64,000 bases of DNA, taken from assembly GCA_036337435.1 (NCBI GenBank), contig JAYZEG010000041.1:1-64000 (forward strand), given 5' to 3'. Of the stretch, positions 3,740 to 37,274 are shown in pieces. How positions within the stretch are numbered: the stretch's first letter is position 1; each line of letters starts with the position of its first letter. The notes under the pieces are model-generated. The model did no database searches and was not told the origin of the DNA. It worked only from the letters and a program-made list of their open reading frames with translations. This DNA is from Myxococcota bacterium (GTDB taxonomy: Bacteria; Myxococcota_A; Bradymonadia; UBA7976; UBA1532). The translations under genes and the position numbers were made by a program.

Positions 3740-6700
3740 TTAGTCCACCGAGATGGTCAGGGTGAACGCTCCGTCTTCAAGCGCACCGGTTGAATCGATG
3801 ATAATCGCATGTTGCCCGGCTTCAAGCTCTCTCGTGATGTTGGCGTCATCAACGGGGCTGCAGTTCTCCTGGCCAAAGCACCCACCATCGAGCAATTTGA
3901 TCACGGGGTTAAATTCTGCCCCTTGTACAGATGCTGTGACTTGCGCTCGCTCGGCAAGGCCAAACAAGAATACGCGGTCTTTTCCGCCAGGGCCGGCCCC
4001 ATTGTCACAGCTTGCTGCGTTGGATGAATCTGTCGCGGTCGCCGTGGTGTCCTGTAACTGAATCTGTGTCCCGCGGGGGATAATCTCGCCCTCTTCGGCA
4101 GGCTCACACGTGTCGTCTAATCGGGGCCCGGCGTTATCATCGGGGTTGACCTGGAGTGTCAACTCCACATCGCCATCGCTCTCGACGATGACGAAATGGA
4201 CACCAGCGTCGAGGTCGGCTTCTAGAGTTGGTTGTGCACCTGCTTGACAGCTCAACTCACTGTTGGCGTCGTCACAATTTGTCCGCAATGACAAAGCAAC
4301 AGGGTTAGCTGCGCTGGTCGTGACCCTGACCCGTGATGCCTCTGCCAGCTCAAATCGATGGAGTGCTTGCTGATTGCCAACACCCAGACAGTTTCCACCG
4401 TACGGCGGTGGTGTGAGATTGAGTGGGCTTTCAACATTTTGTCCGTCAGCAATTGGGATTGCATCTGCACACGCTTGAGCTCGTTCGGCTAACGCGACGT
4501 CAACTCCACCCGCGTATTGCCCTTCGATCACGACGTAATAGGTGCCGGGGTCCACATCATGCTCCATGAACCCGTCATTCGATGGACAGGCGATAGCGGC
4601 CTGCGAGCAATCTTGATAGAGCACGGGTTGTGCCGCAGCGGCTGGCTCAGTCATGGTCACTCTGAGAGTCGACGGGTCAGCGACATCGATGCGATACGCT
4701 TGTTCGGGGGTATCACCGAGACCGCAAGCGCCGACAAATAGATTGTCAGCACCGCCACCCACATTGACATTGCTGAAACCGGTTGGCAAAACTGGGGCCT
4801 GCTGACACGCTTCCGCGGGTGTTTCGATCACCGGCGCGCCTGGTGGAGGATCGAGTTCGACCAAGAGATCGCCTTCGTTAACTCCATCGATGATAATGAA
4901 ATATTCACCAGCGGGAACTCGGTGACTCAGCGCACCGTCCTCGTCTCCACATGCGACCACCTCGCCTTCGCAATCGCGATAGAGCAGGAGACTCGTGCCA
5001 GGTTGGGGTTGCTCGAGGCGCGCATTGATGGTTGCTCGGCGGTCCAAGTTGATTCTGAATGCGCGGTCTATACTGCCTGGGGCTGCACAGTTAGGACTGA
5101 AATTGTCGGAGCGGCCGATGCTTTCCGCGGGTGACGGCACACCATGTTCCAGCTCAGGTGCTCGCTCGCACGCTTCTGCGGGCGTCGCACCGCCACCCTC
5201 GCCGGGAGGCGGATCTAAAATAAGGTCTATCTCCCCATCATTGGGTCCGTCGATGACGACATAGTAATCGCCTGGGTCTAAGTCCTGACGTAAGTTCGGT
5301 CCACCTTCACCACAATTGATTGGGTTTTGGTTACAGGCACCGTAGACCATGATGGCCGTGGTCGGGTTGGGGATCGACAGTCGTCCAATGAGTGTTGTCG
5401 GCTCATCAATACTGATTTGATAAACCCGGTCAGGATTACTGCCACCTCTACAATCAGGGTTGAATGAATCAAAGTCGTCTTCGAGGACATCCCCATTGAT
5501 GGGGCCACCGGCCAGATCATAAACTGGTGCCGCTCCGCAGGCATCTAATGGTGATGGAGGTCCAGGTTGGCCACCCGGCTCGATTGTCAGTTGCGCTGAC
5601 ACAGGGGCGTTGCCGTTGATGACAGCATAGTATTCGCCGGCGGGCATGAAACGTGTCCGCGTATTTCCATTATTGGCTTGGCACCTCAACTCGCCTGCGG
5701 CGTCACTGCAGACCGTCCGAATACTTGCGATGGCATTTTGGTCAGCACTATCGATGGCAAGACTGACCATGGAGTCTTGTTCCACTGAGAACCGATAGAT
5801 GGCTTGACCAGCGGCTTCATTGAGACAGCCACCACCGACGTCCGGATTACGCTGATTGAGTTCCACCTCTACGGGGTCGCCAGCAGCAAGTTGCGGTGCG
5901 GCCTGACAGACGGGGTTTTCGCCATCGAAAGTCAGGCTAATGTCACCACGGTAATTTCCGTCTACAATCAGGTAGTGTCGGCCAGCACCAACCGCGGCCG
6001 TCACTCGTCCGAAGTTGTCTCCACAGGCGATTGGCTCTTGTGTACAGTCGTTCATAACCCTTAACCGAGCATCGGGATCGAGGTTTTCTAAGCGGGCTGT
6101 TACCGTACCCGCTCCCGGTGGGTCAAAAGCGAATACAGCATCGGTCCCGTCTTGGAGATGGCAGTCTGCCGAGAATGTGTTGATCGGTCTGTCAGAAGAC
6201 CCATTAAATGTCGAATTCAATGGGACCACTGGGGCTCTTGCACAACGCGCTTCAGGCCGGTCATCCGGAGCGATACTCAAGGTATATGCACCCTCACCGT
6301 CGATTCGAATGATGCCTGGTCCGAAGGCTGTTTGAGGGAGTGGTTCACCGTTGAATGTGCCAAACACATTGCCCTGAACGCTGATTTCAACGGTGCCATC
6401 GTTGCCGCGATACTGAAAGTGATCGACGTCGTTATCACAGAGATTGGCATTGATTTCGCCCGCATCGATTTCCCTGGCATTGCTCGGGATGTCATTTCGC
6501 CACGGCCTTTCGAACTGATCATCCAGACAGCTGATGTTGCCCTCGGTGGTAATGCTGTAGACGCCGCTGCCGCCTTCGAGAGCGGTGACACGGATATAAT
6601 AAATTCCGGAACCAACATTGACCCAGTTTTCGTTGCCGATAGCCTCGCCGATATCCGTTGCATCTCGACCCAACTGCTCACGGGAGTAGGCGCGGATATC

Positions 6701-8914
6701 GAGTGCTGTTGTGGATGAGTCGAAACGGACGGTAACCCGAGCACCAACGTTGTCGTTGACTCGGTACCAATCGGCTCGTCCTTCGCAGGCCATGAGTTCG
6801 GGAACAGTGCCGTAAATTAAGTTGGTGGCAAATCCGAAGTCACCATTGTTCAATGTGTCTTCGTCGCAATGGTCTCTTGGCAGTGTACAAATGCCGCCGT
6901 TGCATTGATGTCCATCGAGGCAATCGTCCGCAACATCACATTGGTCTGGATTAACACAACGCGCACCATCGCAGACACCACGTTCACAATCTGCATCCGC
7001 CGTACAGTCGACACAGCGACCATCTTGAGCGCAGCGTAAGCCTTGTGGACACCCTTGTTCGCCCGCGTTGCCCTGTGCTTGTGCGCAGGGGGCTGGCTGG
7101 ACGCAATGGCCGTCCTCACACACCCAGTCCTCGGGGCAGTCACATTCACCGGGCCGGTCAGCCAGGCATGTAAACCCAACGCAGAAAAGGTCGCCACCGC
7201 AGTCTACATCCTGGCGACAATCGACCGTATAGCAGTGTGCGAAAAGACATTCTTGACCGTCGATGCATTGGTCTCCTGGTTCGCAGTAGCGCGGTTCCCG
7301 GCAAAGGCCATCAGGGCCACATTCCAAATTAGCAGGACATTGGACATCGACCATACATGGCTCCGTGCAGCGTTCAGCTTGGACGTCACACAGGCGGTCA
7401 TCATCGCAATCTCGGTCCCCTGCGCAGGTGGGGCCCTCAACACAGAGATTTGTTTGATCGCAAACTCGAGTTCCCAAGCATCCGCCATCGACGCATTCAT
7501 TACGGCAACTGCCATCGACGCATCGGCGCCCGACAAAGCAATCGAAAGCACCACGACAGAAGTCAGGTTCTTCACATCGGCCATTGACGCAGCTCATTCC
7601 ACCCGGACAATCTGCTGGCTCTAGGCACGGGTCGGTACACGCATTGGCTTCACATACTCGGCCTTCGAAACAACCGTCATTGCCATCACAGGGCGTCGCC
7701 TCCACACATTCACCCGTTTCTCTCTGGCAGAGCAACGCACCCTCACAAGGAACTCGCTCGCAATTATCCTGACATTGACCTTCGACACAGACTCGTCCTG
7801 GATTACAGTCAAAGGCTCCATTACAGAAGTCTGGTTCCGTACATTGACCGTCGACACAATCTTGCGCACCCGGACAATCAGCAGGCTCCAAGCATGGGTC
7901 ATTACACGCACCATCGGTACAAATCCGATTGGCAAAGCAGCCGTCTGCATCGGCACACGGGTCCGCTTCTTGGCATTGACCGGTGATGCGATCGCAGGTC
8001 AGGCCGCCGATGCAGGGGACGACACTGCATGGATCCTGGCAAGCGGCCATACCGGCTTGTCCGACGCACACTCGGTCACCCAGGCAATCGGTGTTGTCTG
8101 AACAAATGTTAGGCTCCGTGCAGATGCCATCAGTACACCGTTGTGCACCTGCACATTGAGCACTTTCAATACACGGTTCCACGCACGCTCGTTCGACGCA
8201 TCGACGACCTCCATTACAGTCTTGGTCCGCCACACAGTTGGCCGGCTCGAGACACCGCCCACTGTTGAGTTCACAGACCTGTAGACCAGGACAACTGTCA
8301 TCCATTCGACAGCGCGGGCTACATTGGCCATCAACACAAATATTGCCGCCGCATTGGTCGTCGCTCATGCACGGACCCGAGTCTGTACAGGTCTGCGTGA
8401 TCAAATCGCAGGTCTCACCGTCGGGGCAGTTATTGTTGTCTAGACATGCGTCCCGACACATTCCATTTTCGCAGAGTCGCGCCCCAAGACAATCGCGATG
8501 TGCTTCGCAAATATCCGGCTCGAGGCAGGTTCCGCGGTCACAAATCTGATTCCCAACGCAGTTACAGGCCGCATCTGCAGTTCCTGTGTCGGGCTCGATC
8601 CACATGTCTTCTTCTTGAGCCATATCCAGGGGTAATTGTGCGTCTACGCTGGCATCTCGGACTGATGTGTCGCGGAGACTGGCGTCCTGTGCCGCGTCTA
8701 TCGACGGAGTACTGTCCATCACAGTCGAGGCGTCGCTGGATACGCCACCGTCGACCATGCCGGTGCTCGTATCCATCTGACCCGTCAGTCCGCCAGACCC
8801 ATCATCTGAGGCGCACCCCGATAACCCGAGGGCCGCGGACAGGGTAAGTAAAACCAGGTGTTTGAATAGATTTCTCATACTGAGATTTAAGCGAGACTGC
8901 TTGTAACTGCGCAC
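3740..8914 (-). CDS. Giant Cys-rich lipoprotein (1724 aa): Cys-rich repeat stalk, two PPC-like domains, seven tandem beta-sandwich repeats
   Basis: GGAGG 5 nt upstream of GTG 8914; lipobox LGLSGC; D/S/T linker; many CxxDxDCxxGxxCxxGxC units; seven ~115-aa repeats starting xCxxAP and ending G.YYVVIDG. Confidence 0.85.
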   Translation of the reverse strand: MRSYKQSRLNLSMRNLFKHLVLLTLSAALGLSGCASDDGSGGLTGQMDTSTGMVDGGVSSDASTVMDSTPSIDAAQDASLRDTSVRDASVDAQLPLDMAQEEDMWIEPDTGTADAACNCVGNQICDRGTCLEPDICEAHRDCLGARLCENGMCRDACLDNNNCPDGETCDLITQTCTDSGPCMSDDQCGGNICVDGQCSPRCRMDDSCPGLQVCELNSGRCLEPANCVADQDCNGGRRCVERACVEPCIESAQCAGAQRCTDGICTEPNICSDNTDCLGDRVCVGQAGMAACQDPCSVVPCIGGLTCDRITGQCQEADPCADADGCFANRICTDGACNDPCLEPADCPGAQDCVDGQCTEPDFCNGAFDCNPGRVCVEGQCQDNCERVPCEGALLCQRETGECVEATPCDGNDGCFEGRVCEANACTDPCLEPADCPGGMSCVNGRCEEPDFCRGAFDCFVGRRCVDGSCRNECVDGGCLGTRVCDQTNLCVEGPTCAGDRDCDDDRLCDVQAERCTEPCMVDVQCPANLECGPDGLCREPRYCEPGDQCIDGQECLFAHCYTVDCRQDVDCGGDLFCVGFTCLADRPGECDCPEDWVCEDGHCVQPAPCAQAQGNAGEQGCPQGLRCAQDGRCVDCTADADCERGVCDGARCVNPDQCDVADDCLDGHQCNGGICTLPRDHCDEDTLNNGDFGFATNLIYGTVPELMACEGRADWYRVNDNVGARVTVRFDSSTTALDIRAYSREQLGRDATDIGEAIGNENWVNVGSGIYYIRVTALEGGSGVYSITTEGNISCLDDQFERPWRNDIPSNAREIDAGEINANLCDNDVDHFQYRGNDGTVEISVQGNVFGTFNGEPLPQTAFGPGIIRIDGEGAYTLSIAPDDRPEARCARAPVVPLNSTFNGSSDRPINTFSADCHLQDGTDAVFAFDPPGAGTVTARLENLDPDARLRVMNDCTQEPIACGDNFGRVTAAVGAGRHYLIVDGNYRGDISLTFDGENPVCQAAPQLAAGDPVEVELNQRNPDVGGGCLNEAAGQAIYRFSVEQDSMVSLAIDSADQNAIASIRTVCSDAAGELRCQANNGNTRTRFMPAGEYYAVINGNAPVSAQLTIEPGGQPGPPSPLDACGAAPVYDLAGGPINGDVLEDDFDSFNPDCRGGSNPDRVYQISIDEPTTLIGRLSIPNPTTAIMVYGACNQNPINCGEGGPNLRQDLDPGDYYVVIDGPNDGEIDLILDPPPGEGGGATPAEACERAPELEHGVPSPAESIGRSDNFSPNCAAPGSIDRAFRINLDRRATINARLEQPQPGTSLLLYRDCEGEVVACGDEDGALSHRVPAGEYFIIIDGVNEGDLLVELDPPPGAPVIETPAEACQQAPVLPTGFSNVNVGGGADNLFVGACGLGDTPEQAYRIDVADPSTLRVTMTEPAAAAQPVLYQDCSQAAIACPSNDGFMEHDVDPGTYYVVIEGQYAGGVDVALAERAQACADAIPIADGQNVESPLNLTPPPYGGNCLGVGNQQALHRFELAEASRVRVTTSAANPVALSLRTNCDDANSELSCQAGAQPTLEADLDAGVHFVIVESDGDVELTLQVNPDDNAGPRLDDTCEPAEEGEIIPRGTQIQLQDTTATATDSSNAASCDNGAGPGGKDRVFLFGLAERAQVTASVQGAEFNPVIKLLDGGCFGQENCSPVDDANITRELEAGQHAIIIDSTGALEDGAFTLTISVD

Positions 8915-8993: not shown

Positions 8994-11900
8994 TTACTGA
9001 ATTGGTCTCACCCATAAACGCGAGCCATGATGCCAGCTGTTATTGCCACCAGGAACGCCCGTTCCGTAGTAATTGGAATAATGGTAGTCCGTGCCTGCTC
9101 GACCATCGATGTAGTTGTAATTACTGACATGAAAGAGCGTCAGGTAATTATTATTTGAATGGCGTGGATACCAATAATAATGGCCTGACCTCGAGTTGCC
9201 ACCTACATCCGTCCAGTTTTGAGCCGGAGACAGTTTGTAGAGTAAGTTGTTCCCAGATGTCAGGTCTTGGTCTGTTCCATAGTTGGGCATGATGTTTCGA
9301 TTGGCGACACGGTAAATGGCCTTCGCATTCCAGGAGTCCCATGGAATGAGGGCCGAACGCCCTTGGTCCAGAACAACGGCAAATTCGATGGGAAAGTTCA
9401 TACCGGCTAGATGACGCCAGTCTGTCCAGGCACCATCGCTGTCTGGATTACCGATGTACTCGGGACGCCCGTAGGTCTCGTTATTCCGAGCCTTCATGAA
9501 GTAGGCATAGTCGCGGCTGTTGACATCGGCTGGTGCGTTGCTCCGACCCGGGTGTCGGTAGTGTCCGACCAGAGTCCATCCACCGCCATCGGTCTCCATG
9601 TCGCAGTACGCATCGATCTCTCCCTGTGCTGTGTCCAAGCGATACAGACCGGAAACAATCGATGGCTCGTACGCCCCATTTCGTCCGGCGCGATACTCTA
9701 GGCAACTGTCCGATAAGCGCCCATCGGACCACAATCGTGCACCGTTTTCGCCTTCGACGATGCGCAGTACATCGACCGCTGGCAATTGCTCGATTTCCCG
9801 CATCAAGATTCGAGACCCATGATGCCAAGAGTTATTGCCGCCAGGAATCCCAGTGCCATAGTAATTGGAGTAATGGTAATCGGTGCCTGCCCGACCATCG
9901 ATATAGTTGTAATTACTCACATGGAAAAGGGTTAGGTAGTTGTTGTTGGAGTGACGTGGATACCAATAATAATGGCCTGACCTTGAGCTGCCGCCGACGT
10001 CGGTCCAGTTGTTATTTGGACTCAATTTATACAGAAGATTATCGGACGCCGTTAGATTTTGCTGGGTCCCGTAATTGGGCATAATGTTCCGATGTTTGAC
10101 CCGGTAAATCGCTTTTGCATTGTGATTTTCCCAATTGGTCATAAACGAGCGGCCTTGGTCCAATATAATCGCCATCTCGATGGGCCAGCTGATGTGCTCT
10201 AAGACACGGAAGTCAGTCCACGCACCATCACTATCGGGGTTAGCTATATACTGGGGTCGCCCGTAGGCTTGGTTGGTCCGAGCCTTCATAAAGTAGGCAT
10301 AGTCTCGGCTGTTGACATCGGCCGGTGCATTGCTGCGACCAGGATGTCGGTAATGTCCGAGCATCGTCCAGCCACCCCCATCGGTGGCCATATCGCAGTA
10401 CACTGGAATGCGGCCGCTTGGCGTTTGTATATAATATCGACCACTCAATAAGGTTGTCTCATCGCCGCCGTTAGGGACCTGTTGTAAGTATTCTTTACAG
10501 GTTCTCCGCACCTGACCGTTTGACCAGGATCGAACGTCGTTTTCATCAGCGACGATGCGCAAGCGGTCTGGGTCGGGTAGGGGCGCTGATTCACGGATCA
10601 ACATTCTCGACCCGTGGTGCCAAGAGTTATTGCCGCCAGGAATCCCAGTGCCGTAGTAGTTGGAGTAGTGGTAATCGGTGCCTGCTCGACCATCGATGTA
10701 GTTGTAGTTACTCACGTGAAACAAAGTCAGGTAGTTGTTGTTGGAATGCCGCGGATACCAGTAGTAATGGCCAGACCTTGAGCTGCCGCCGACGTCGGTC
10801 CAGTTGTTATTTGGACTCAATTTGTAAAGCAGGTTATCGCCTGAGGTCAGGTTTTGCTGGGTTCCGTAATTGGGCATGATATTTCGGTTTTTGACTCGAT
10901 AGATGGCCTTTGCATTGTAGTCTTCCCAGTTGGTTTGGTAGGCCCGACCCTGGTCAAGAATAATGGCAAATTCCAATGGCCAGCTCATGCCCGATAGCAA
11001 TCGCCAGTCAGTCCAGGCCCCTTCGCTGTTTGGATCTCCGTAATATTCCGGACGACCGAAGGCTTCGTTACTTCGAGCCTTCATGAAGTAGGCGTAGTCG
11101 CGACTGTTGACATCGGCTGGTGCATTGCTCCGCCCGGGATGCCGATAATGGCCCACCATGGTCCAGCCGCCGCCATCGGTCTCCATGTCGCAGTAGGCAT
11201 TGATTTCACCCGCAGGCGTGTCGAGTCGATACATCCCGGATAACAAGTCGCCGGTGTATGCGCCCTCTGGAATGTCGTTTTTGTATTCCTTACAGGAGCG
11301 CCGCAGGTCTGCGTCGGCCCACCGACGCCCACCGTCATCGCCCGTGACAATTCGTTCCTGATCTTCGGCTGGCCCATCACCCAATTCCCGAACCAGCATT
11401 CTTGACCCATAATGCCACGAATTATTGCCACCAGGCACACCTGTGCCGTAGTAGTTCGAATAGTGGTAATCGGTGGCCGCTCGACCGTCGATATAGCTGT
11501 AATTACTGACGTGGAATAGGGTTAGATAGGCATTTCCCTGATTTCTTGGATACCAATAGTAGTGACCTGACCTTGAGCTACTGCCCACGTCGATCCAGTT
11601 GTCCTGCGTGTTCAACTTGTAGAGTAAGTTGTCGCCTGCAGCCAGATTTTGCTGAGTGCCGTAGTTCGGCATGACGTTCCGATTCTTGACCCGGTAGACA
11701 ACCTTCCGATTATACGTCTCCCAGCTCGGGGAATAGAATCCTGTTTCATTGAGTACGATTGCAAATTCGATGGGAAAACCCATATCTTTCAGGGGCCTAA
11801 AATCCGTCCAAGCACCGTCACTGTTGGGATCGGCCAGATACTCTTGGCGGCCAAAAGTGCGGTCCTCCCGCGCTTTCATGAAGTAAGCATAATCCCGACT

Positions 11901-13725
11901 GGCCACGTCACCCGGCGCGTTGGTGCGACCTGGATGCCTGTAGTGACCGATCATGGTCCATCCGCCACCATCTGTGTCCATATCACAGTAGACGGTCTGT
12001 TCTCCTAGAGTATTGCGAATTCTGTACTTGCCGGACAGACGATCACCCAGATAGGCATTGTCTGGCGGGTCAAGGTAGCCCTTACACGAATTCGGAATTG
12101 AACCGTCTGACCAGGACAGAGCTCCATCATCACCCGGAGTGAGGCGAACTTGCCCTTCTTCGGGTGGTTCGCCGAGAGAGCGGAACAACATTCGAGAGCC
12201 GTGGTGCCAACTATTATTACCCCCCGGTACACCTCGTCCGTAGTAGTTCGCGTACTGGTAATTTGTATCAGCGCGACCATCTAAAAAGCGGTAGTTACTG
12301 ACATGAAACAGGGTTAAGTAGTCGTTATTAGCAGCCCGTGGATACCAGTAGTAATGACCTGATTTGGAGTTGTTATGGATGTCTGACCACCCACCGCTTG
12401 GCGAGAACTTGTAGAGGACATTGTCACCGGCAGCGATATTTTGGGTGGTGCCGTAATTGGGCATTAAGTTTCGATGTTTGACCTGATAAATCGCCTTGGC
12501 ATTATAATCTTCCCAGCCTGAGCTGTATTGCTCACCCTGGTCGAGGATCACGGCAAATTCGATTGGCCAGCCGGCATTCTCCAACGGTCTCCAGTCTGTC
12601 CAGGCGCCCTGGCTGTCCGGATTGGCAAGATACGTCGAACGGCCGAACGCCTCGTTACTGCGGGCTTTCATGAAGTAGGCATAGTCGCGATTTTGCAAGC
12701 CCGGTGGCGCATTCTCCGTTGTCGGATGCCGGTAATGACCCAGCATCGTCCAGCCGCCGCCATCGGTCTCCATGTCGCAGTAGACGGTAATTGCACCCGA
12801 TGTGGTTGTGATCTCGTATTTGCCCGAATCGATATTGCCCTGATAAAATTCTTCCGGGGGGTTTCGATAGTCTTGACAGCTCTTCGCTGTGGTTCCGTCC
12901 GACCAGCTGCGCACGCCGTCGTCATCGGTCTCGAGACGCGTCTGGTCTTCTGCTGGTGGGTCGACCATTTCGCGAATGAGCAAGCGCGAGTTATGTTGCC
13001 AGGTGTCGTTACCGCCGGGCACACCGACGCCAAAATAGGTGCCGTACTGGTAATTACTGGCCGCTTGTCCGTCGCCGATATAGCGGTAATTACTGACGTG
13101 GAACATGCCGAGATATTGATTTTGGGGGTTTCGCGGAAACCAGTAATACGTTCCCGATCGAGAGCCATCACCGACGTCAGTCCAGTTCTCGGCCGGATGA
13201 AACTTAAACATCAGGTTGTCGTTCGCTGCGATGTTTTGAGTCGTGCCGTAATTGGGCATTTGATTTCGGTTCTTGACCCGATAGATCACTTTTCGACCGT
13301 AGTTCTCCCAGCCCGTTTGGAACTCATCGCCTTGGTCGATCACGACCGCAAACTCCGCCGGCCAGCCGATGTTGTTCAAGACGCGCCAATCGGTCCAAGT
13401 ACCCGCACTGTTTGGATTGGCATAGTGCTCCCCTAAACCGAAGGGGGCATTTAGACGAGCTCGCATGAAGAGGGAATAATCGCGGTTGTCATGGCCCGGT
13501 GGGGAACCTGCAGTCCCCGAACGATAATGACCAACAACCGTCCAACCACCACCGTTGGTGGTCATGTCACAATAGACAACATAGGGCTGACCACCGTCAT
13601 TACTCAGCCGGTATCGGCCATCTCCGCCGCCAACATAGGCTTCATCCTGGAGATATTCTCGGCAGCTTGCGGCGAAGGTATTGTCGCTCCATTGGCGTGC
13701 CCCATTGACTTCAATGAGCTCTTTG
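8994..13725 (-). repeat. Six tandem intragenic ~795-bp repeats encoding fibrinogen-like domains
   Basis: YCDM codons near 13570, 12780, 11990, 11190, 10400 and 9605. Exact DNA matches 9979-10028 = 10774-10823 (50 bp) and 9823-9857 = 10618-10652 (35 bp), both offset by 795 bp. Confidence 0.9.
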
Positions 13726-15239
13726 TCGGCTGGACCGCCGTCGCCGCCAGCGACACCTCGCGACATATTGACCCATTCAGTCCCGTTACAGCCCTTGAAA
13801 CGTTGCTGCTCGATGTTGAAGTATACTCGGCCTCGGGTCTCCTCGTTGCATGGCCCCATGCCCTCTGTCGTCACATTGTGAATGTCCGTTGCACCACCGA
13901 AGCTGGTATTTCCGCGAACAGTGAGGTTTCCATTAATGACGACATCGCCGTCGCCACGTAGAAAAGCAGAACTGTCGATGCCATCGATGCGGTCCGCATC
14001 GACACCCGAACCTTGCCCGTCGATGGTCTTTAGGCGGTCTAAGACCTGTTGTGCTGTTCGTACGAATTGGCTTGAATCGATGCCATCGATCCGATCGGCG
14101 TCAAGACCAGAATTACTGCCGTCTACGGTTTTTAGAAGTTCAAGGATTTGCGCTGCCGTGCGAACGAACTCTGATGAGTCGAACCCATCGAGACGGTCTG
14201 CATCTATCCCGCTGCCCGTTCCATCGACGCGCAGCAATCGTTCCAGAACATGGGCGGGTGTTCGGACAAAGACATCCAGTGGTTGCCCGCCTAAAGTTGC
14301 CGCATCGACTTCATCGGTTCTTTGCCAAAATTCCTCAGAACTGAGCCCATCAAGAAAATCAGCGTCTAGTAGACTGTCGACGCCGTCGACTCTGAGCAAC
14401 AAAGTCAGCACCTGGTCGGCGGTTCGAACAAATTTATTGGAGTCGATGCCGTCAAAGTAGTCTGCGTTGATGCGAGAGCCTTCACCATCCACCGTCAGCA
14501 AAAGTTGGAGGACCTGCTGCGCTGTTCGAACGAATTCGCTGCTGTCGATTCCATCGAGGAGGTCGGCATCGATCTCGGATCCGGTCCCGTCCACCTGTCT
14601 TAGTTTTGCTCGAACTTGTTCCGGGGTATCTGGCGAGCCTTGTTGTCCCTCGGCACCGACCTGTCCGGCTGGCCCTTGCGGCCCCTGAGGTCCTTGTGGC
14701 CCGGGTGGTCCTGCAACACCTTGTTCTCCGTCCCGTCCTGATGGACCGCGCAGACCGGCCGGATTGCCAACCCAATTCCCTTGGGCATCAATCACCACAC
14801 CAACACCATTGATAGCGACACTGGATGGCGTAATGTCCCCGGTTACATTGATTGCATTGTCGGCAATAAACGCGGCTGGAACTTTCGAAATTTCGACCAG
14901 TGGCCTCAGTTCAGGTTGGTCACCTATCGCAACCCCGTAGAATAACGCATCCCGTTCAAATAGACCGGCTGGGAGTTGAACCTCGCTGCCGATCGAAATT
15001 GAGTAGATGCCGCGAGTGAATGTCACTCGGGGGTGTACTTCTTCGAAAAGAAGATTATTGCCTTCGACAGAGCTGTAAATTCTGACGCGGATGGAAAAAT
15101 CACCTTCGATAGGTGTTCCATTCGCATCGATAACGTACCCCTCTTGGTGAAAGCGATTCGGCAATGCGTGCGCAACCGTCAGACCGACGATAAGGCTCAA
15201 CACGCAAGCAAATATACCTGCAAACAGTCTGCTCAACAT
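8994..15239 (-). CDS. Secreted fibre-like adhesin (2081 aa): collagen triplets, DADxxDG tail-fibre-like repeats, six fibrinogen-like domains
   Basis: Signal peptide ending AHA; 14 GXY triplets; 34-aa DADxxDG repeats; six copies of SC..Y..G.Y..VYCDM.TDGGGWT, the N-terminal signature of fibrinogen-related domains. Confidence 0.85.
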   Translation of the reverse strand: MLSRLFAGIFACVLSLIVGLTVAHALPNRFHQEGYVIDANGTPIEGDFSIRVRIYSSVEGNNLLFEEVHPRVTFTRGIYSISIGSEVQLPAGLFERDALFYGVAIGDQPELRPLVEISKVPAAFIADNAINVTGDITPSSVAINGVGVVIDAQGNWVGNPAGLRGPSGRDGEQGVAGPPGPQGPQGPQGPAGQVGAEGQQGSPDTPEQVRAKLRQVDGTGSEIDADLLDGIDSSEFVRTAQQVLQLLLTVDGEGSRINADYFDGIDSNKFVRTADQVLTLLLRVDGVDSLLDADFLDGLSSEEFWQRTDEVDAATLGGQPLDVFVRTPAHVLERLLRVDGTGSGIDADRLDGFDSSEFVRTAAQILELLKTVDGSNSGLDADRIDGIDSSQFVRTAQQVLDRLKTIDGQGSGVDADRIDGIDSSAFLRGDGDVVINGNLTVRGNTSFGGATDIHNVTTEGMGPCNEETRGRVYFNIEQQRFKGCNGTEWVNMSRGVAGGDGGPADKELIEVNGARQWSDNTFAASCREYLQDEAYVGGGDGRYRLSNDGGQPYVVYCDMTTNGGGWTVVGHYRSGTAGSPPGHDNRDYSLFMRARLNAPFGLGEHYANPNSAGTWTDWRVLNNIGWPAEFAVVIDQGDEFQTGWENYGRKVIYRVKNRNQMPNYGTTQNIAANDNLMFKFHPAENWTDVGDGSRSGTYYWFPRNPQNQYLGMFHVSNYRYIGDGQAASNYQYGTYFGVGVPGGNDTWQHNSRLLIREMVDPPAEDQTRLETDDDGVRSWSDGTTAKSCQDYRNPPEEFYQGNIDSGKYEITTTSGAITVYCDMETDGGGWTMLGHYRHPTTENAPPGLQNRDYAYFMKARSNEAFGRSTYLANPDSQGAWTDWRPLENAGWPIEFAVILDQGEQYSSGWEDYNAKAIYQVKHRNLMPNYGTTQNIAAGDNVLYKFSPSGGWSDIHNNSKSGHYYWYPRAANNDYLTLFHVSNYRFLDGRADTNYQYANYYGRGVPGGNNSWHHGSRMLFRSLGEPPEEGQVRLTPGDDGALSWSDGSIPNSCKGYLDPPDNAYLGDRLSGKYRIRNTLGEQTVYCDMDTDGGGWTMIGHYRHPGRTNAPGDVASRDYAYFMKAREDRTFGRQEYLADPNSDGAWTDFRPLKDMGFPIEFAIVLNETGFYSPSWETYNRKVVYRVKNRNVMPNYGTQQNLAAGDNLLYKLNTQDNWIDVGSSSRSGHYYWYPRNQGNAYLTLFHVSNYSYIDGRAATDYHYSNYYGTGVPGGNNSWHYGSRMLVRELGDGPAEDQERIVTGDDGGRRWADADLRRSCKEYKNDIPEGAYTGDLLSGMYRLDTPAGEINAYCDMETDGGGWTMVGHYRHPGRSNAPADVNSRDYAYFMKARSNEAFGRPEYYGDPNSEGAWTDWRLLSGMSWPLEFAIILDQGRAYQTNWEDYNAKAIYRVKNRNIMPNYGTQQNLTSGDNLLYKLSPNNNWTDVGGSSRSGHYYWYPRHSNNNYLTLFHVSNYNYIDGRAGTDYHYSNYYGTGIPGGNNSWHHGSRMLIRESAPLPDPDRLRIVADENDVRSWSNGQVRRTCKEYLQQVPNGGDETTLLSGRYYIQTPSGRIPVYCDMATDGGGWTMLGHYRHPGRSNAPADVNSRDYAYFMKARTNQAYGRPQYIANPDSDGAWTDFRVLEHISWPIEMAIILDQGRSFMTNWENHNAKAIYRVKHRNIMPNYGTQQNLTASDNLLYKLSPNNNWTDVGGSSRSGHYYWYPRHSNNNYLTLFHVSNYNYIDGRAGTDYHYSNYYGTGIPGGNNSWHHGSRILMREIEQLPAVDVLRIVEGENGARLWSDGRLSDSCLEYRAGRNGAYEPSIVSGLYRLDTAQGEIDAYCDMETDGGGWTLVGHYRHPGRSNAPADVNSRDYAYFMKARNNETYGRPEYIGNPDSDGAWTDWRHLAGMNFPIEFAVVLDQGRSALIPWDSWNAKAIYRVANRNIMPNYGTDQDLTSGNNLLYKLSPAQNWTDVGGNSRSGHYYWYPRHSNNNYLTLFHVSNYNYIDGRAGTDYHYSNYYGTGVPGGNNSWHHGSRLWVRPIQ
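13953..14630 (-). repeat. Intragenic 102-bp (34-aa) DADxxDG repeats, six full plus one degenerate
   Basis: Consensus AQQVLxLLxTVDGxGSxIDADxxDGIDSSxFVRT read directly from the translation. Confidence 0.85.
14631..14756 (-). repeat. Collagen-like Gly-X-Y repeat (14 triplets)
   Basis: GLR GPS GRD GEQ GVA GPP GPQ GPQ GPQ GPA GQV GAE GQQ GSP. Confidence 0.9.
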
Positions 15240-17685: not shown

Positions 17686-19116
17686 TTAGGAAACGAATTC
17701 AAACCATATGAGAAAACGCTGGAATTCAGCCTTAAGGCGATACTGATTTCCTAAGGTGAGAGTGGGCCTATTTTCTAAAATGGGCAGAAATGCTTGTCGC
17801 CAATGAGTGCCAGCTTGTCCCGGTCCCGTCGTCATGAAGGGCTCGCCATCTTGGAGCAGTTCGTACCAGAATACGATGCCATGACATGTGGCACTTGCCG
17901 TCGCGATAAATGCCTTTGTCTCGGCACCGGACAATGGGATGTCTTCGTTAAAGTTGAGTTCTACAGCCGTGTATGGTTCGGCCAGCGCTGTATACTCGAA
18001 GCGCTCCAGTTCAACTTGTAAGAGTCGTGGATCTCGCAATGCATTGAAGGGCGAAAGTGTAAAGCCGCAAACGGTGTCCACAGAGAAAGAGTGATTTAAA
18101 CTTTCACTGAAAACGGGTAGCGCGATGATGCGAACCCCATCGGGAACGAGGGTTGCGCCTGGCTTCAAGAGCTGGGTCTTGGCATGCTGTATGGTTGCGA
18201 GCGCATCCTCCCCAAAAAAACCAGCATCGAAGATCTCACAAATCAGTGCGTCCGCTCGATGAGCCATATCCTCACCGACGACCAATTGGGTCGACCTTTT
18301 CTGAATCACTTTGATTCGATCTTGGAATCCATTGGCGCGAACGACCTGTTTCGCTGCAGTTGTAATCTTTGGATTGTCGTCACATGCATAGACTTGACCG
18401 GCACCTGCATCGGCGGCCATCAGGGCCAGTAGGCTCGAACCAGTCCCAATATCCAAGACCACGTCATTTGGTTTGATGGAGGCGCGAATTGCACTTTGGA
18501 AAGCGGCATTGCGCGGTGCATCATTCATCATGGGGAAATGCCAACGCTGGATAGTATTGCCAATCAGTGCTCTCATCCGTTGTTTGGCCAAATTCTCGGC
18601 CGCTTGGTTAGGCTGTGCTGACGCACTGGAATAGCGTCTTAAGGCCAGACCTGACTGACCGATCAAACTCAGTATATCGCCCATGCCGATCTCTGCCATT
18701 GGGTGACCGGGACTCAATGTCAAAACGGCCTGAAATGAATCGACGGCTCGCTGATAGTCTTGAGCCGTTTGATACAAGTGACCTAAGCGCAGACCAACGT
18801 CGATTTGACTGGCTCCGAAATCGCGCGCTTGTTCATAACAGGTCTTCGCGGCGTCTGCGTTGGATGCTCTGAGTTCGTAGTCACCGCGAGCCAGCCAATA
18901 TCGACCGGATTGAGCCAGCTCTTTCTCAGCGCGTTTTAGATGACGGTTGGCCGTAGGCAACTCATTTTGTTGTAAGGCCAAATCGGCCAATGCGAGATTG
19001 GCGTCGCCGTGACTGGGTCTCGCTTTCAGAATCTTGCGATAGGTCCGACTTGCCTCGGCTACTTGTCCTTTCTTAAACAACTCGTTCGCGTGTTTGAGCA
19101 GACGCACTACATCCAA
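17686..19116 (-). CDS. TPR-repeat protein fused to a PRMT-like SAM-dependent methyltransferase
   Basis: N-terminal TPR-like helices; WHFPMMND..RN, VLDIGTGSSLLALMAA, VYACD, ALICEIFDAGFFGE (double-E loop) and GTHWRQ (THW loop); TTG start with purine-rich RBS. Confidence 0.85.
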   Translation of the reverse strand: MDVVRLLKHANELFKKGQVAEASRTYRKILKARPSHGDANLALADLALQQNELPTANRHLKRAEKELAQSGRYWLARGDYELRASNADAAKTCYEQARDFGASQIDVGLRLGHLYQTAQDYQRAVDSFQAVLTLSPGHPMAEIGMGDILSLIGQSGLALRRYSSASAQPNQAAENLAKQRMRALIGNTIQRWHFPMMNDAPRNAAFQSAIRASIKPNDVVLDIGTGSSLLALMAADAGAGQVYACDDNPKITTAAKQVVRANGFQDRIKVIQKRSTQLVVGEDMAHRADALICEIFDAGFFGEDALATIQHAKTQLLKPGATLVPDGVRIIALPVFSESLNHSFSVDTVCGFTLSPFNALRDPRLLQVELERFEYTALAEPYTAVELNFNEDIPLSGAETKAFIATASATCHGIVFWYELLQDGEPFMTTGPGQAGTHWRQAFLPILENRPTLTLGNQYRLKAEFQRFLIWFEFVS

Positions 19117-19255
19117 GACAGCACCCCTTCCTTTATTAGACTGATTCTACTCACGTAAGAGCCCCAAATACTCTTCCATTAGGTGGCAGTTTAGACAGGA
19201 AATAGCTCTTCGGTCTAGCTCGTTGATATCCTTTCCATCAAATTAAATGGCTGTC

Positions 19256-27215: not shown

Positions 27216-27310
27216 GGAGGCGCTTGTTCGACTGGTGTGGACCGTGGACTTCAAATCCATTGTGGAGCGGTGATCCCGTTCCGGGCGGGTTCGATTCCCG
27301 TGCGCCTCCG
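27216..27310 (+). tRNA. selC: tRNA-Sec (anticodon UCA)
   Basis: 8-bp acceptor stem GGAGGCGC/GCGCCTCC; 5-bp T stem GCGGG-TTCGATT-CCCGT; anticodon arm GTGGA-CTTCAAA-TCCAT; long variable arm GGAGCGG-TGATC-CCGTTCC; discriminator G; CCA not encoded. This is the bacterial 8/5 fold. Confidence 0.95.
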
Positions 27311-33632: not shown

Positions 33633-34013
33633 TTCTTCCCCCTCAATGAACCGGTGATAGACTTTCACTATCTCGGCGACTGGCCATTTAAGTTCCCCAA
33701 ATACGCCGCAGCCACTTGGCCCCGTGGTACGGTCGTCTCCCGTCTTGTGGATACGTCACCTTACAATGAATGGACGCATCTGCAAATTGTCCATCGGCCT
33801 TGCCTTATGTTTTATCTAGCTCACGTGTTTACGAGAGCCTACGTTTAGTCGTTCAGACAGAGCCCAAGGCGCGTCTCATCAGCGACCGAGAGCTTCATTT
33901 ATCTCCGCCAGGCAGTTCGCTTTTTGAAGCTGGTTTTGATGATTTTGCGTCGGGTTTCTTGAGTAATCGTCGCTATCTCCGCTATGAATGTATCCTTGGA
34001 GAGGGAGAACTCT

Positions 34014-37000
34014 ATGACCTACGCCACGACACGATACGCAAGTTTAGCCCTTCTGTTTTTTCTGTCGGCCGGATGCGGGGATGACAAAGCAGCACCCGTG
34101 CGCATCCACGACGGGGGCACATCGAGAGATCTTGCGCTGGGCAGCGGTGGCTTCGGTGGCATGGCAACGCAGCCAATGACTGACCTGGGCTTGATCAACC
34201 CATCGGACGCGGGACCGGTTATCGACCGGGGCGGCACAGGTGGCGCAGCAGGAGCTGGCGGCGCAGGGGGGACCGGCGGGGCTGGTGGTACGGCCGGCAC
34301 GTCCATAATCGACGGTGGGCCCTCGGGACCCCAGTGCGGAGACGGTCGAGTCGACATCGGAGAGGATTGTGATGATGGCAATGTTCTCGATGGAGATGGC
34401 TGTAGTTCCATCTGCCAGCGAGAACCGGCGTGTGGTGATGGCGTCGTTGACCTTGGGGAAGCGTGTGACGATGGCAATGTCATCGATGGAGATGGCTGCA
34501 GCGCCAACTGTGCTCTAGAACCCCGATGTGGGGACGGTGTTCGAACGGCTGGAGAGCAATGCGATGACGGAAACAACCTTGATGGTGATGGCTGTTCATC
34601 CACGTGTCGTGATGAACCTGCTCCACGGTGTGGCAATGGGATCGTTGAGGCAGGAGAGGCGTGTGATGACGGCAACAATTTGAATCAAGACGGCTGCTCC
34701 TCTAATTGCCAAAACGAAGCACCTGCCGTATGCGGAGATGGCATCCAAACCAATGATGAAGCCTGTGATGATGGCAACAATCTCAATGGTGATGGGTGCT
34801 CAGCGCAGTGCGAAATTGAAGCGGAGGAACCTCGGTGTGGAAATGGTGTCCAGGATCCCGATGAAGCATGCGATGATGGAAACAATATCGACGGTGACGG
34901 TTGCTCTGCGAACTGTGCGAGAGAGGGGGGCCAAGTCATACTCGACGATGGACAGCTCGGTTGTGTCGCCATTTCTCAGTGTCTCGTCGCCTGCCCAGAT
35001 GGAGACCAAAATTGCAGTAATGCGTGCATCGCGACAGGCACACTCATAGGCCAAATCCGATTTAACGAACTTCGTCAGTGTATCGTTGAGAACGAATGCG
35101 TCGTCGGTAATGAGGTGGATGCTGACTGCATAGAGGCCAATTGTGCACAAGAGGAGGAGGCGTGCTTTGGCGCATCGGTCGATCCTGTTGGGATGGCGTC
35201 TTGTACCGAACTCATCGAGTGCGTCGAGAGATGTGACGGCCTCAATTGCATTCGTCAATGTATTCGGACTGGCAGTGAGATGGGCTATGAGTTGGCCTAT
35301 GCCCTTGACGAATGTGTTTTTGATATCAATCAGTGTGATTCCAGACAGAGCGACTGCGCTCTCGACAATTGTGGGGCTGAACTGACGGCGTGTTTTGGAC
35401 AAGCTGTCTGCGGGAATGGTCGGCGTGAACTTGGAGAAGAATGTGACGATGGAGATCGAATAGACGGCAATGTATGCAGCAATCTTTGCCAGGTCAATCC
35501 GTTCTGCGGTGATGGTAATCGCGACGCTCAAGAAGGCTGCGATGATGGCAATCGCTTAGACAGCGATGGCTGTTCATCCCTCTGTGTTGTAGAGCCGATT
35601 GTGGACTTGGAACAAGGCCAAATCGACTGCCGGACCCTAAATACCTGTTTGGGTAACTGTGACAATGGCGATGATGTATGCATAGACGCGTGTGTCGCGG
35701 ACGCGTCATTGCTGGGTGCGACTCGGTTCTCGGCACTCACGGATTGTGTGGTCCAAAATCAATGTAATGAGGCTGCTGACATCGATGACGATTGCCTCAA
35801 TGAAAATTGTCGTGACGAATATTTAGCCTGTTTTGGAGCTCAGATTTATCCGCGTGGTCAATCGACGTGTGAAGACCTGGTTGCCTGCGCAGACCGATGT
35901 GCAGATACCAACTGTGTACGGCGCTGCATTGGAAATTCGACGGAGCGAGCCTTCGAGGTGGCAGTTGCGCTCGATGAGTGTGTGTTTGATGAAAATAACT
36001 GTCCGAATCGGGTCGGTGATTGCGCCCAGGCCAATTGCGCGGTCGAGCGTTTGGCCTGCTTTGGTGTTGAACAACCAGCCTGTGGTGATGGCCGGGTCGA
36101 TGCGGGCGAAGCGTGCGATGATGGTAATCGCCTGGCGGGAGACGGCTGTTCGCCTGATTGCCAGATTGAAAATCAAGTTTGTCGCGATGACTTGTTTGAA
36201 GATAACGATAGGTCGGCTCAAGCGTTTCCGGTGGCCCCGGCCGAATACCGCGGACTGCAGCTCTGCGCCAGCGATGATGATTGGTATCGGATGGACGTCT
36301 GTGCGGGCGGAACGTTGACAGTCGAGCTCTCGTTTATCCATCGGCAAGGGGACCTTGACCTGGAGCTGTTCGAATCCGATGCAGGCCTTAATTCGCTGGA
36401 TAGTTCGTCCACCCTAAACGACGGGGAAGATGTTGCCTGGACCAACAATTCTGGTGACGCTGTTGGTATTTTCATCCATGTGGATGGATTTTTGGATGCA
36501 GAAAACACCTACGACATGACCATTACCGTGGCCGATTGCGGAGGCGGTGGCAATGGGGCCGATAATAACGCTGTCAATGGCGATGTGCGCTTGGCTGATG
36601 GTGCCAATGAGTCGACCGGACGCGTTGAGGTGTTCCTTGATGGTGAATGGGGCACGGTTTGCGACGACAGCTTTGACCTCGTCGATGCCCGAGTCGTTTG
36701 CCGACAGTTGGGCTATGACGATGCGGGAGGCGTCATTTCCAACTTTGGTGGCGGTGCTGGACCCATTCACCTCGATGATGTCAGCTGTGTGGGCAATGAG
36801 CAGCGTCTCGTCGACTGTCGTTCCCTAGGTGTTGGTGTCCATAATTGCGGCCATTTCGAAGATGTCGGTGTTGAGTGCCGCGACTTTGGAGACAACGATG
36901 TTGGCAATATGGATTGTCGAGATGATCAATTTGAAGAAAATGATGCTCTCGATGCGGCCTTTCCTATTTTTGCAGGTGCTTTTGACAACCTGATGCTCTG

Positions 37001-37274
37001 TTCCCAGGACGCCGACTTCTATGCTGTCAGCGTGTGTCCCGAGGGAACGGTTCGAGCCCTCATCGATTTTAATGGACTCACCGGCGATCTCGAACTTGAA
37101 TTGCTCGGAGATAACGGTGCCAGTTTAGATATTTCAGAATCTATTGGGGACCAAGAGCAGGTTGAGTGGACCAATATCTCAGGTGCCAATGCGGTGAGTT
37201 ATATTCATGTCTATGGCTTTCAAAATGATGAAGCCAGCTACGGATTGAGGGTTGATGTACAAGGCTGCTTTTGA
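34014..37274 (+). CDS. Cys-rich lipoprotein: nine DUF4215-type repeats, four 10-Cys modules, PPC-SRCR-PPC C-terminus
   Basis: Lipobox LSAGC; Gly-rich linker; nine CG(D/N)G....E.CDDG...DGCS..C units; SRCR signature at 36585-36878; two C.DD.FE.ND PPC-like domains. Confidence 0.88.
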   Translation: MTYATTRYASLALLFFLSAGCGDDKAAPVRIHDGGTSRDLALGSGGFGGMATQPMTDLGLINPSDAGPVIDRGGTGGAAGAGGAGGTGGAGGTAGTSIIDGGPSGPQCGDGRVDIGEDCDDGNVLDGDGCSSICQREPACGDGVVDLGEACDDGNVIDGDGCSANCALEPRCGDGVRTAGEQCDDGNNLDGDGCSSTCRDEPAPRCGNGIVEAGEACDDGNNLNQDGCSSNCQNEAPAVCGDGIQTNDEACDDGNNLNGDGCSAQCEIEAEEPRCGNGVQDPDEACDDGNNIDGDGCSANCAREGGQVILDDGQLGCVAISQCLVACPDGDQNCSNACIATGTLIGQIRFNELRQCIVENECVVGNEVDADCIEANCAQEEEACFGASVDPVGMASCTELIECVERCDGLNCIRQCIRTGSEMGYELAYALDECVFDINQCDSRQSDCALDNCGAELTACFGQAVCGNGRRELGEECDDGDRIDGNVCSNLCQVNPFCGDGNRDAQEGCDDGNRLDSDGCSSLCVVEPIVDLEQGQIDCRTLNTCLGNCDNGDDVCIDACVADASLLGATRFSALTDCVVQNQCNEAADIDDDCLNENCRDEYLACFGAQIYPRGQSTCEDLVACADRCADTNCVRRCIGNSTERAFEVAVALDECVFDENNCPNRVGDCAQANCAVERLACFGVEQPACGDGRVDAGEACDDGNRLAGDGCSPDCQIENQVCRDDLFEDNDRSAQAFPVAPAEYRGLQLCASDDDWYRMDVCAGGTLTVELSFIHRQGDLDLELFESDAGLNSLDSSSTLNDGEDVAWTNNSGDAVGIFIHVDGFLDAENTYDMTITVADCGGGGNGADNNAVNGDVRLADGANESTGRVEVFLDGEWGTVCDDSFDLVDARVVCRQLGYDDAGGVISNFGGGAGPIHLDDVSCVGNEQRLVDCRSLGVGVHNCGHFEDVGVECRDFGDNDVGNMDCRDDQFEENDALDAAFPIFAGAFDNLMLCSQDADFYAVSVCPEGTVRALIDFNGLTGDLELELLGDNGASLDISESIGDQEQVEWTNISGANAVSYIHVYGFQNDEASYGLRVDVQGCF

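Follow-up and report, generated by a model that had tools for sequence, protein, structure and literature searches.

The gene described here lies on the minus strand of the window, the whole 64,000-nucleotide stretch of DNA that was analysed, and encodes TPR-PRMT, a protein in which an array of TPR repeats precedes a protein arginine methyltransferase (PRMT)-type module (Table 1). It is a real, intact gene under purifying selection. In the comparison with its orthologue from genome G002, pN is 0.11 for the catalytic part and 0.18 for the TPR part, with pS values of 0.72 and 0.68, respectively, indicating that the gene is maintained. Scans for promoters and terminators stayed at chance level (3 versus 2.8 and 4 versus 3.7), and three metatranscriptome runs, which contained 5–6% of the region's words and 10 short contig pieces that all lie on flanking DNA, are uninformative either way.

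Table 1. Positions of TPR-PRMT features in the window
Feature	Position	Strand	Basis and remarks
TPR-PRMT gene	17686..19116	minus	476 aa, TTG start, one catalytic module; genome sequence and ORF list
Purine-rich, putative ribosome-binding stretch	19124..19133	minus	ends 7 nt upstream of the TTG; function suggested by the sequence
Five predicted TPR helix pairs (residues 3–166) and capping helix (171–186)	18559..19110	minus	Pfam TPR families, secondary structure of the model
SAM-binding Rossmann domain (~residues 187–325)	18142..18558	minus	holds the RWHF-M-ND-RN helix, motif I, post-I and motif II
Double-E loop E294–E303 with PRMT7/9-type Asp297	18208..18237	minus	alignment
PRMT beta-barrel (~residues 326–476)	17689..18141	minus	model and fold matches; Pfam PRMT_C below cut-off
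Predicted short dimerisation arm (~residues 338–360)	within 17689..18141	minus	putative, assigned from the model
THW loop T437-H438-W439	17800..17808	minus	sequence, alignment

Genes for DUF1592, DUF1552 and M50B-peptidase proteins lie upstream on the same strand, and this order is kept in both same-genus genomes examined that have the flank. In two genomes of the same order without it, the start of the PRMT gene overlaps a Ser/Thr kinase ORF. A Pfam search of 40 of the larger ORFs of the 64-kb window revealed no biosynthetic cluster, and inspection by eye gave no convincing small precursor ORF adjoining the gene.

Elsewhere in the window, positions 8994–15239 (minus strand) encode a 2081-residue protein with a collagen-like stretch, short repeated motifs and several fibrinogen-C-like domains; the adjoining positions 3740–8914 hold a 1724-residue ORF with no Pfam match. 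A tRNA-Sec gene lies at 27216–27309 (plus strand; Rfam, 71.9 bits), and the 1096-residue product of 33984–37274 (plus strand) carries DUF4215 repeats together with a scavenger-receptor cysteine-rich domain.

Domains, active-site motifs and predicted fold

Pfam TPR families match the protein from residue 7 to approximately 165, with a class I methyltransferase core behind them, and PRMT_C gives a sub-threshold match (E 4e-4). None of the 25 NCBIfam matches listed exceeds its own cut-off. The PrmA equivalog model TIGR00406 scores 40.3 bits against a cut-off of 183.15, and hence TPR-PRMT does not qualify as a PrmA. ApyS, a weak NCBIfam match, was dropped because the paper describing it links it to MppJ and to C-methylation.

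The earlier note had read a full set of PRMT motifs, preceded by TPRs, from the letters of the gene, and all of them are present in both the sequence and the alignment. The HxxMxND..RN helix (RWHFPMMNDAPRN) occupies residues 191–203, followed by motif I (VLDIGTGS, 220–227), post-I (VYACD, 242–246), motif II (ADALIC, 288–293), the double-E loop E294-IFDAGFFG-E303 with the spacing E294-x2-D297-x5-E303, and the THW loop within GTHWRQ (436–441). The double-E loop reads EIFDAGFFGE where type I enzymes have EWMGY, and TPR-PRMT thus lacks the EWMG-type signature of type I.

Residue conservation was read from an alignment of 120 rows (the query and 119 of the 120 listed homologues, the self-match being omitted). 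His193, Asp199, Arg202, Gly224 and Gly226 are invariant, Glu294 and Trp439 are each kept in 119 rows and Glu303 in 118, and Asp297 is found in 95. The acidic post-I residue is Glu in 112 rows and Asp, as in TPR-PRMT, in the other 8. His438 of the THW loop is kept in only 56 of the 120 rows, and Cys takes its place in 31.

Bacterial PRMT relatives have been described before, together with PRMT-like peptide methylases that are embedded in NRPS proteins or linked to operons (Aravind 2012). The NRPS-embedded domains belong to the same superfamily but are remote (E 5e-11 or weaker) and lack the THW loop, and TPR-PRMT, unlike the operon-linked methylases, lies outside any biosynthetic operon. The loss of the THW loop in these remote relatives might suggest that the PRMT fold has here, too, been turned to an acceptor other than arginine, such as lysine, histidine, an amide or a small amine. 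We regard this as very unlikely, given that both glutamates, Asp297 and Trp439 are kept in TPR-PRMT and throughout the family and that the PrmA model stays so far below its cut-off (40 bits versus 183). AerE and PoyE were also considered as PRMT-like enzymes and set aside, as the structure paper on them refers to GenN and PrmC and contains no mention of PRMT.

An AlphaFold model built from a 76-row alignment has a mean pLDDT of 96.5; in it, five TPR helix pairs and a capping helix lead into a Rossmann domain, which is followed by a beta-barrel. The absence of a predicted barrel had been set beforehand as grounds for giving up the PRMT assignment; the barrel is present in the model. Judged by this predicted structure, TPR-PRMT is a true PRMT-fold enzyme with a barrel. 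Over the catalytic module, the model matches PRMT structures with Z scores of 28–32. The top folds in VIA-align are PRMT7 from Trypanosoma brucei (TbPRMT7; Z 31.7), mouse PRMT7 (31.1) and PRMT9 (30.8), which are effectively tied, and type I enzymes reach at most 28.8. Foldseek puts bovine PRMT9 first (E 1.8e-24, TMq 0.59, rmsd 9.2) because the TPRs align as well.

Sequence searches of the PDB give the same picture: mouse PRMT7 (E 1.7e-37) is followed by PRMT9 (8.7e-34) and TbPRMT7 (1.1e-25), and type I enzymes match at 5e-20 or weaker. With a profile of the family, the best natural PDB match is PRMT9, unbroken over the TPRs and the first module (profile positions 82–471, E 4.9e-114). The affinity to PRMT7 and PRMT9 is thus borne out by both fold and sequence, and the stretch from TPRs through module matches PRMT9 end to end.

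For the definitions of PRMT types, we follow PMC8399567, PMC12153873, PMC12808985 and PMC10578352. There, TbPRMT7 is presented as a homodimer with monomethyl-arginine as its sole product, and Asp258 of PRMT9, which aligns with Asp297, as a residue confined to the PRMT7 and PRMT9 subfamilies. TbPRMT7 (type III; PDB 4m38, 4m36 and 5eku) is the top structural match and, like TPR-PRMT, has a single module and, by subfamily, an Asp inside the double-E loop. The superposition covers 305 residues with an rmsd of 3.4 (model residues 153–475 onto chain residues 41–374), and in it the last TPR and the capping helix overlie the N-terminal helices of TbPRMT7. The two proteins differ in that their identity is 26% and in that the match, instead of spanning all five repeats, is limited on the N-terminal side to the final TPR and the capping helix. 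Moreover, a protein substrate has been demonstrated for TbPRMT7, whereas TPR-PRMT is known here from its sequence and model.

Animal PRMT7 (PDB 4c4a, 6ogn and 3wst) provides the best sequence match and superposes with an rmsd of 2.3 over 289 residues. It falls on the same branch as TPR-PRMT relative to type I-like genes, but it has tandem modules, no TPRs and a clade of its own, whereas TPR-PRMT combines one module with TPRs.

PRMT9 (type II; PDB 8rbk, 6pdm and 7rbq) shares with TPR-PRMT N-terminal TPRs that run directly into the module, the RWHF-M-ND-RN helix and the E-x-x-D-AG-F-GE loop. PRMT9 is described with three TPRs and an inactive second module, whereas TPR-PRMT has five predicted TPR pairs and one module: the ORF stops after the barrel, and a search of the host genome (4.38 Mb, 87% complete) gives one module only. 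Furthermore, PRMT9 has TCW where TPR-PRMT has THW. The PRMT9 layout proposed in the earlier note therefore stands for the front half, in which TPRs lead straight into the module, and fails for the missing second module and for the His at the PRMT9 Cys position.

These points also bear on a PRMT9-like function, in which the TPR array would recognize one folded partner and a single arginine would be dimethylated symmetrically. The profile match to PRMT9 from TPR through module, the first rank of PRMT9 in Foldseek and a helix that is nearer to that of PRMT9 than to that of PRMT7 all speak for it. However, the catalytic module fits the structures of PRMT7 and PRMT9 equally well, there is no second module and His438 occupies the position of a Cys that is reportedly needed for symmetric dimethylation by PRMT9. 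We therefore consider a PRMT9-like function improbable.

Distribution and relationships of the family

The protein search was passed by 162 relatives, and at least 572 of the 600 GTDB-contig pattern matches listed encode relatives. The best 80 GTDB loci come from Myxococcota, Bdellovibrionota, Pseudomonadota, Cyanobacteriota, Bacteroidota, Actinomycetota, Acidobacteriota and Thermodesulfobacteriota. In the ESM Atlas, eight bacterial clusters with 51–762 members rank before eukaryotic clusters, one of them named PRMT9. Cultured strains carry members, and in Tistlia consotensis two TPR-PRMT genes lie back to back (L054:6831-10827). A link to phages or viruses is limited to 2 weak matches among 283 pattern matches. 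The statement of the earlier note that the double-E and THW loops define eukaryotic PRMTs is not supported, since hundreds of bacterial genes carry both and bacterial PRMT relatives are in print.

Among the matches listed, the closest named relatives are a protein labelled 'Myxococcales bacterium', with 80% identity over the catalytic part, and a 'Bradymonadia bacterium' locus that has six neighbouring genes in common with the window. In 40 related genomes, clear orthologues (E <1e-58) occur in 3/3 genomes of the same genus, in 3/3 of one sister family and in one further genome; in 21 other genomes of the same family none was found, with only short matches at E 3.7e-6 or weaker. Across the phylum, 33 of the 201 genomes surveyed have a PRMT-like match at E <=1e-40, and only 3, including the host, have one below 1e-100.

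Two genes from the same phylum, L106:1315-2400 (genome G174, a single contig of 9.4 Mb) and L107:1417-3243 (G203), carry the full type I signature (EWMGY and THW), and the first of these matches human PRMT8/PRMT1 at E 4e-80. Their GC3 fits the surroundings, their neighbours include an ABC-F-like ATPase and a fumarylacetoacetate hydrolase, and no biosynthetic cluster was seen around them.

Trees were built on excised catalytic modules (a FastTree of 113 rows, a careful IQ-TREE of 57 and a quick tree of 56 with type I-like outgroups). The rows were hand-picked for spread out of several hundred; they include neither PRMT9 nor eukaryotic type I sequences, and PRMT7 is represented by unnamed relatives of a single named shark PRMT7. 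In the IQ-TREE, TPR-PRMT falls into a clade of its own closest relatives (99/99), the named members of which are Myxococcota. This clade is separate from that of PRMT7 module 1 (100/98) and does not group with PRMT-like genes that adjoin sznF (see below). When two type I-like genes serve as outgroup in the quick tree, a single branch of 46 rows (SH-aLRT 97) unites the stand-alone bacterial family with PRMT7 and algal tandem forms; this branch leaves out type I-like, NRPS-embedded and distant bacterial genes and has a weak internal backbone. By its sequence, TPR-PRMT belongs on the PRMT7/9 branch and with neither type I nor PrmA.

The earlier note had further suggested that the lineage might be informative on the origins of PRMT7 and PRMT9. 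On this, the trees point neither way: TPR-PRMT sits in a separate clade of the best tree, a constraint that joins this clade to PRMT7 is not rejected (p-AU 0.09), and no direction of descent emerges. A nesting of PRMT7 within bacteria, as seen in free trees, did not hold up under the AU test: a tree with PRMT7 beside the NRPS outgroup is better by 3.4 log units (p-AU 0.61).

Tandem proteins also occur among the relatives. P0124, P0125 and P0248–P0268, as well as P0122, P0161, P0202 and P0205, are intron-free and bacterial-looking and have a degenerate module followed by an active one, many with TPRs in front. The intact module is second, the reverse of animal PRMT7 and PRMT9. Their sister group (99/91) is a green-algal TPR-tandem 'PRMT7' family, with which they appear by eye to have a C-terminal helical tail in common. 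In P0404 and P0423 (679 and 695 residues), both modules score as near-complete (230 and 305 bits).

According to a PRMT7 review, how PRMT7 arose and was duplicated calls for further work. With its intact PRMT7/9 active sites, this widespread bacterial family opens both bacterial arginine methylation and the origin of PRMT7 to testing. The interest sits in the family rather than in this copy, which is one of hundreds and comes from an uncultured genome. Bacterial PRMT relatives as such are already in print (Aravind 2012); what is novel is the form with multiple TPRs and a single module.

Gene neighbourhoods and the free-arginine question

We divided the best 80 GTDB loci according to the N-terminus of the PRMT-like protein. 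In 56 loci, it scores more than 50 bits to a profile built in this analysis (multi-TPR class), and the remaining 24 encode a short N-terminus. A SznF orthologue is present in 0/56 multi-TPR loci versus 8/24 short-N-terminus loci, a split that we treat as a pattern and to which we attach no statistical test, since the loci are best matches, some are cut by contig ends and the relatives are not independent. One of the eight SznF orthologues was checked against the PDB and matches at E 2e-155. Five of the eight sznF-adjacent PRMT-like genes retain one TPR-like repeat.

The eight loci are L040, L064 and L070 from cyanobacteria, L065 and L080 from Acidobacteriota, and L034, L041 and L062 from Actinomycetota; L034 and L041 have two sznF-like genes each. 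Genes for Rieske, ATP-grasp, permease or carbamoyltransferase proteins lie near the pairs. From their gene content, these loci are candidate N-nitroso- or NO-forming clusters.

No neighbour is common to the TPR-fused genes overall across the 80 loci. In 9/56 multi-TPR loci, there are genes for a TPR-fused GT41 protein (six loci) or a TPR-fused sulfotransferase (four loci), one locus having both. GT41 is the OGT/SPINDLY family of protein glycosyltransferases. Islands of such TPR-fused genes, which also contain other methyltransferases, occur in L008, L019, L038, L042, L053 and L063 and in L025, L030 and L043. This neighbourhood is known from other phyla and is absent from the host genome: in the 87% complete assembly, we found no match to SznF, GT41, sulfotransferases or the NRPS condensation domain. 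The two haem-oxygenase-like matches in the host genome are DUF3050 proteins. The product of L120:796-2205 (G000:C92) joins a DUF3050 haem-oxygenase-like domain to a DUF420 membrane domain.

SznE, which we take to resemble the eukaryotic PRMTs, is the sole tested bacterial arginine-guanidino methylase that we found in the literature searched. The same search, which covered few subscription papers, returned no biochemical study of a TPR-fused bacterial PRMT. According to a review, SznE/StzE is an arginine-guanidino methyltransferase that lets SznF use N-omega-methyl-L-arginine (PMC11705231), and a preprint reports that SznE was used to locate the saskemycin cluster, which was marked by a homologue with 31% identity (PMC12637814).

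The PRMT-like gene beside the SznF orthologue in L040 is PRMT7/9-like, with PRMT9 as its best match (E 1e-42). It is 40% identical to the catalytic part of TPR-PRMT over 256 residues and has the same active-site motifs. The sznF-adjacent genes nest among TPR-bearing relatives in the tree. As it was these genes, and not SznE itself, that were compared, the label SznE-type rests on their adjacency to sznF. Since they share the motifs, the presence of a PRMT signature in a bacterial protein is on its own no proof of a protein substrate, and since five of the eight keep one TPR-like repeat, a single TPR is not diagnostic either. These putative SznE/StzE orthologues are bacterial proteins with all the motifs, encoded next to sznF and equipped with no more than one TPR, whereas TPR-PRMT has five TPR pairs and a host genome with no sznF match.

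It is possible, though not likely, that TPR-PRMT works in the manner of SznE and feeds an unlinked metabolic route by making N-omega-methyl-L-arginine or by methylating some other free guanidine; the TPRs would then have a part in folding, dimerisation or the binding of a partner. The supply of N-omega-methyl-L-arginine to SznF by SznE/StzE, the 31%-identical homologue that marked the saskemycin cluster and the nesting of genes beside clear SznF orthologues among TPR-bearing relatives argue for such a role. On the other hand, no sznF or NRPS match was found in the host genome (87% complete) and no biosynthetic cluster in the window, none of the 56 multi-TPR loci is linked to sznF, and the clade of TPR-PRMT (99/99) is set apart from the sznF-adjacent genes. 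If TPR-PRMT does methylate free arginine, it is a SznE-like enzyme of modest interest.

Proposed function

The reading we prefer, with a probability of roughly 55%, is that TPR-PRMT is a cytoplasmic, SAM-dependent protein-arginine monomethyltransferase. The multi-TPR array, the split in gene context and the lack of a partner pathway in this genome speak for a protein rather than free arginine as the substrate. A single methylation is the favoured outcome, since monomethyl-arginine is the product both of PRMT7 and of the SznE pathway and since the PRMT9 Cys is absent. The cytoplasmic methylation of a TPR-selected substrate put forward in the earlier note is thus upheld as far as a PRMT-type enzyme is concerned; the motifs, which the sznF-adjacent relatives share, leave the protein substrate unproven.

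By analogy with the PRMT family, Glu294 and Glu303 would clamp the guanidinium group, and a terminal guanidinium nitrogen would attack the methyl group of SAM. Two copies would form a head-to-tail dimer by way of the short arm, in the manner of TbPRMT7, and the docking surface would be provided by the last TPR together with the capping helix, both of which overlie the N-terminal helices of TbPRMT7. This overlap may account for the single repeat that survives in the short sznF-linked genes. With less certainty, the outer TPRs might hold the protein substrate or a partner, and the product might stop at monomethyl-arginine.

Within the close clade, the TPR array is 38–68% identical versus 59–81% for the catalytic part. 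Among these close relatives, the first repeats diverge quickly and the last is better conserved. An array so poorly conserved even among close relatives gives no hint of one conserved docked substrate. The host genome contains no histone-fold match and only one ORF with at least four RG in 40 residues, and hence no substrate candidate stands out. Methylated lysine and arginine sites are reported to be common in bacterial proteomes, where they are called understudied.

A eukaryote-like enzyme with a patchy distribution and with relatives in Bdellovibrionota and Myxococcota could instead be secreted as an effector and methylate prey proteins or those of eukaryotic hosts. The possible effector use raised in the earlier note is without support, and we judge this role highly improbable. 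In the model, a TPR helix begins at residue 3 with no extension before it. In the 87% complete assembly, which was searched for the FHIPEP export gate and for TssC, the type VI secretion sheath protein, the only FHIPEP match is flagellar FlhA and no TssC match was found. Moreover, the GC content of the gene (0.52) equals that of the contig, gene order is kept across the genus and the family is common in free-living bacteria.

Extending the preferred reading of TPR-PRMT as a protein-arginine monomethyltransferase to its relatives, we tentatively suggest that the multi-TPR, single-module enzymes are bacterial protein-arginine writers in many phyla, in the pre-duplication, homodimeric state of PRMT9 and PRMT7. 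They would then be part of a set of TPR-fused modifiers together with the O-glycosyl- and sulfotransferases, and the SznE-type enzymes would have derived from them by trimming of the TPR array to one repeat.

The Cys that replaces the THW His, as in PRMT9, takes the form SCW or TCW in the 31 of 120 rows noted above, including P0022–P0057 (short, Bacteriovorax-type) and P0037, P0043 and P0047 (Pseudanabaena-type). Their loop sequences make these Cys-bearing forms natural candidates for symmetric dimethylation.
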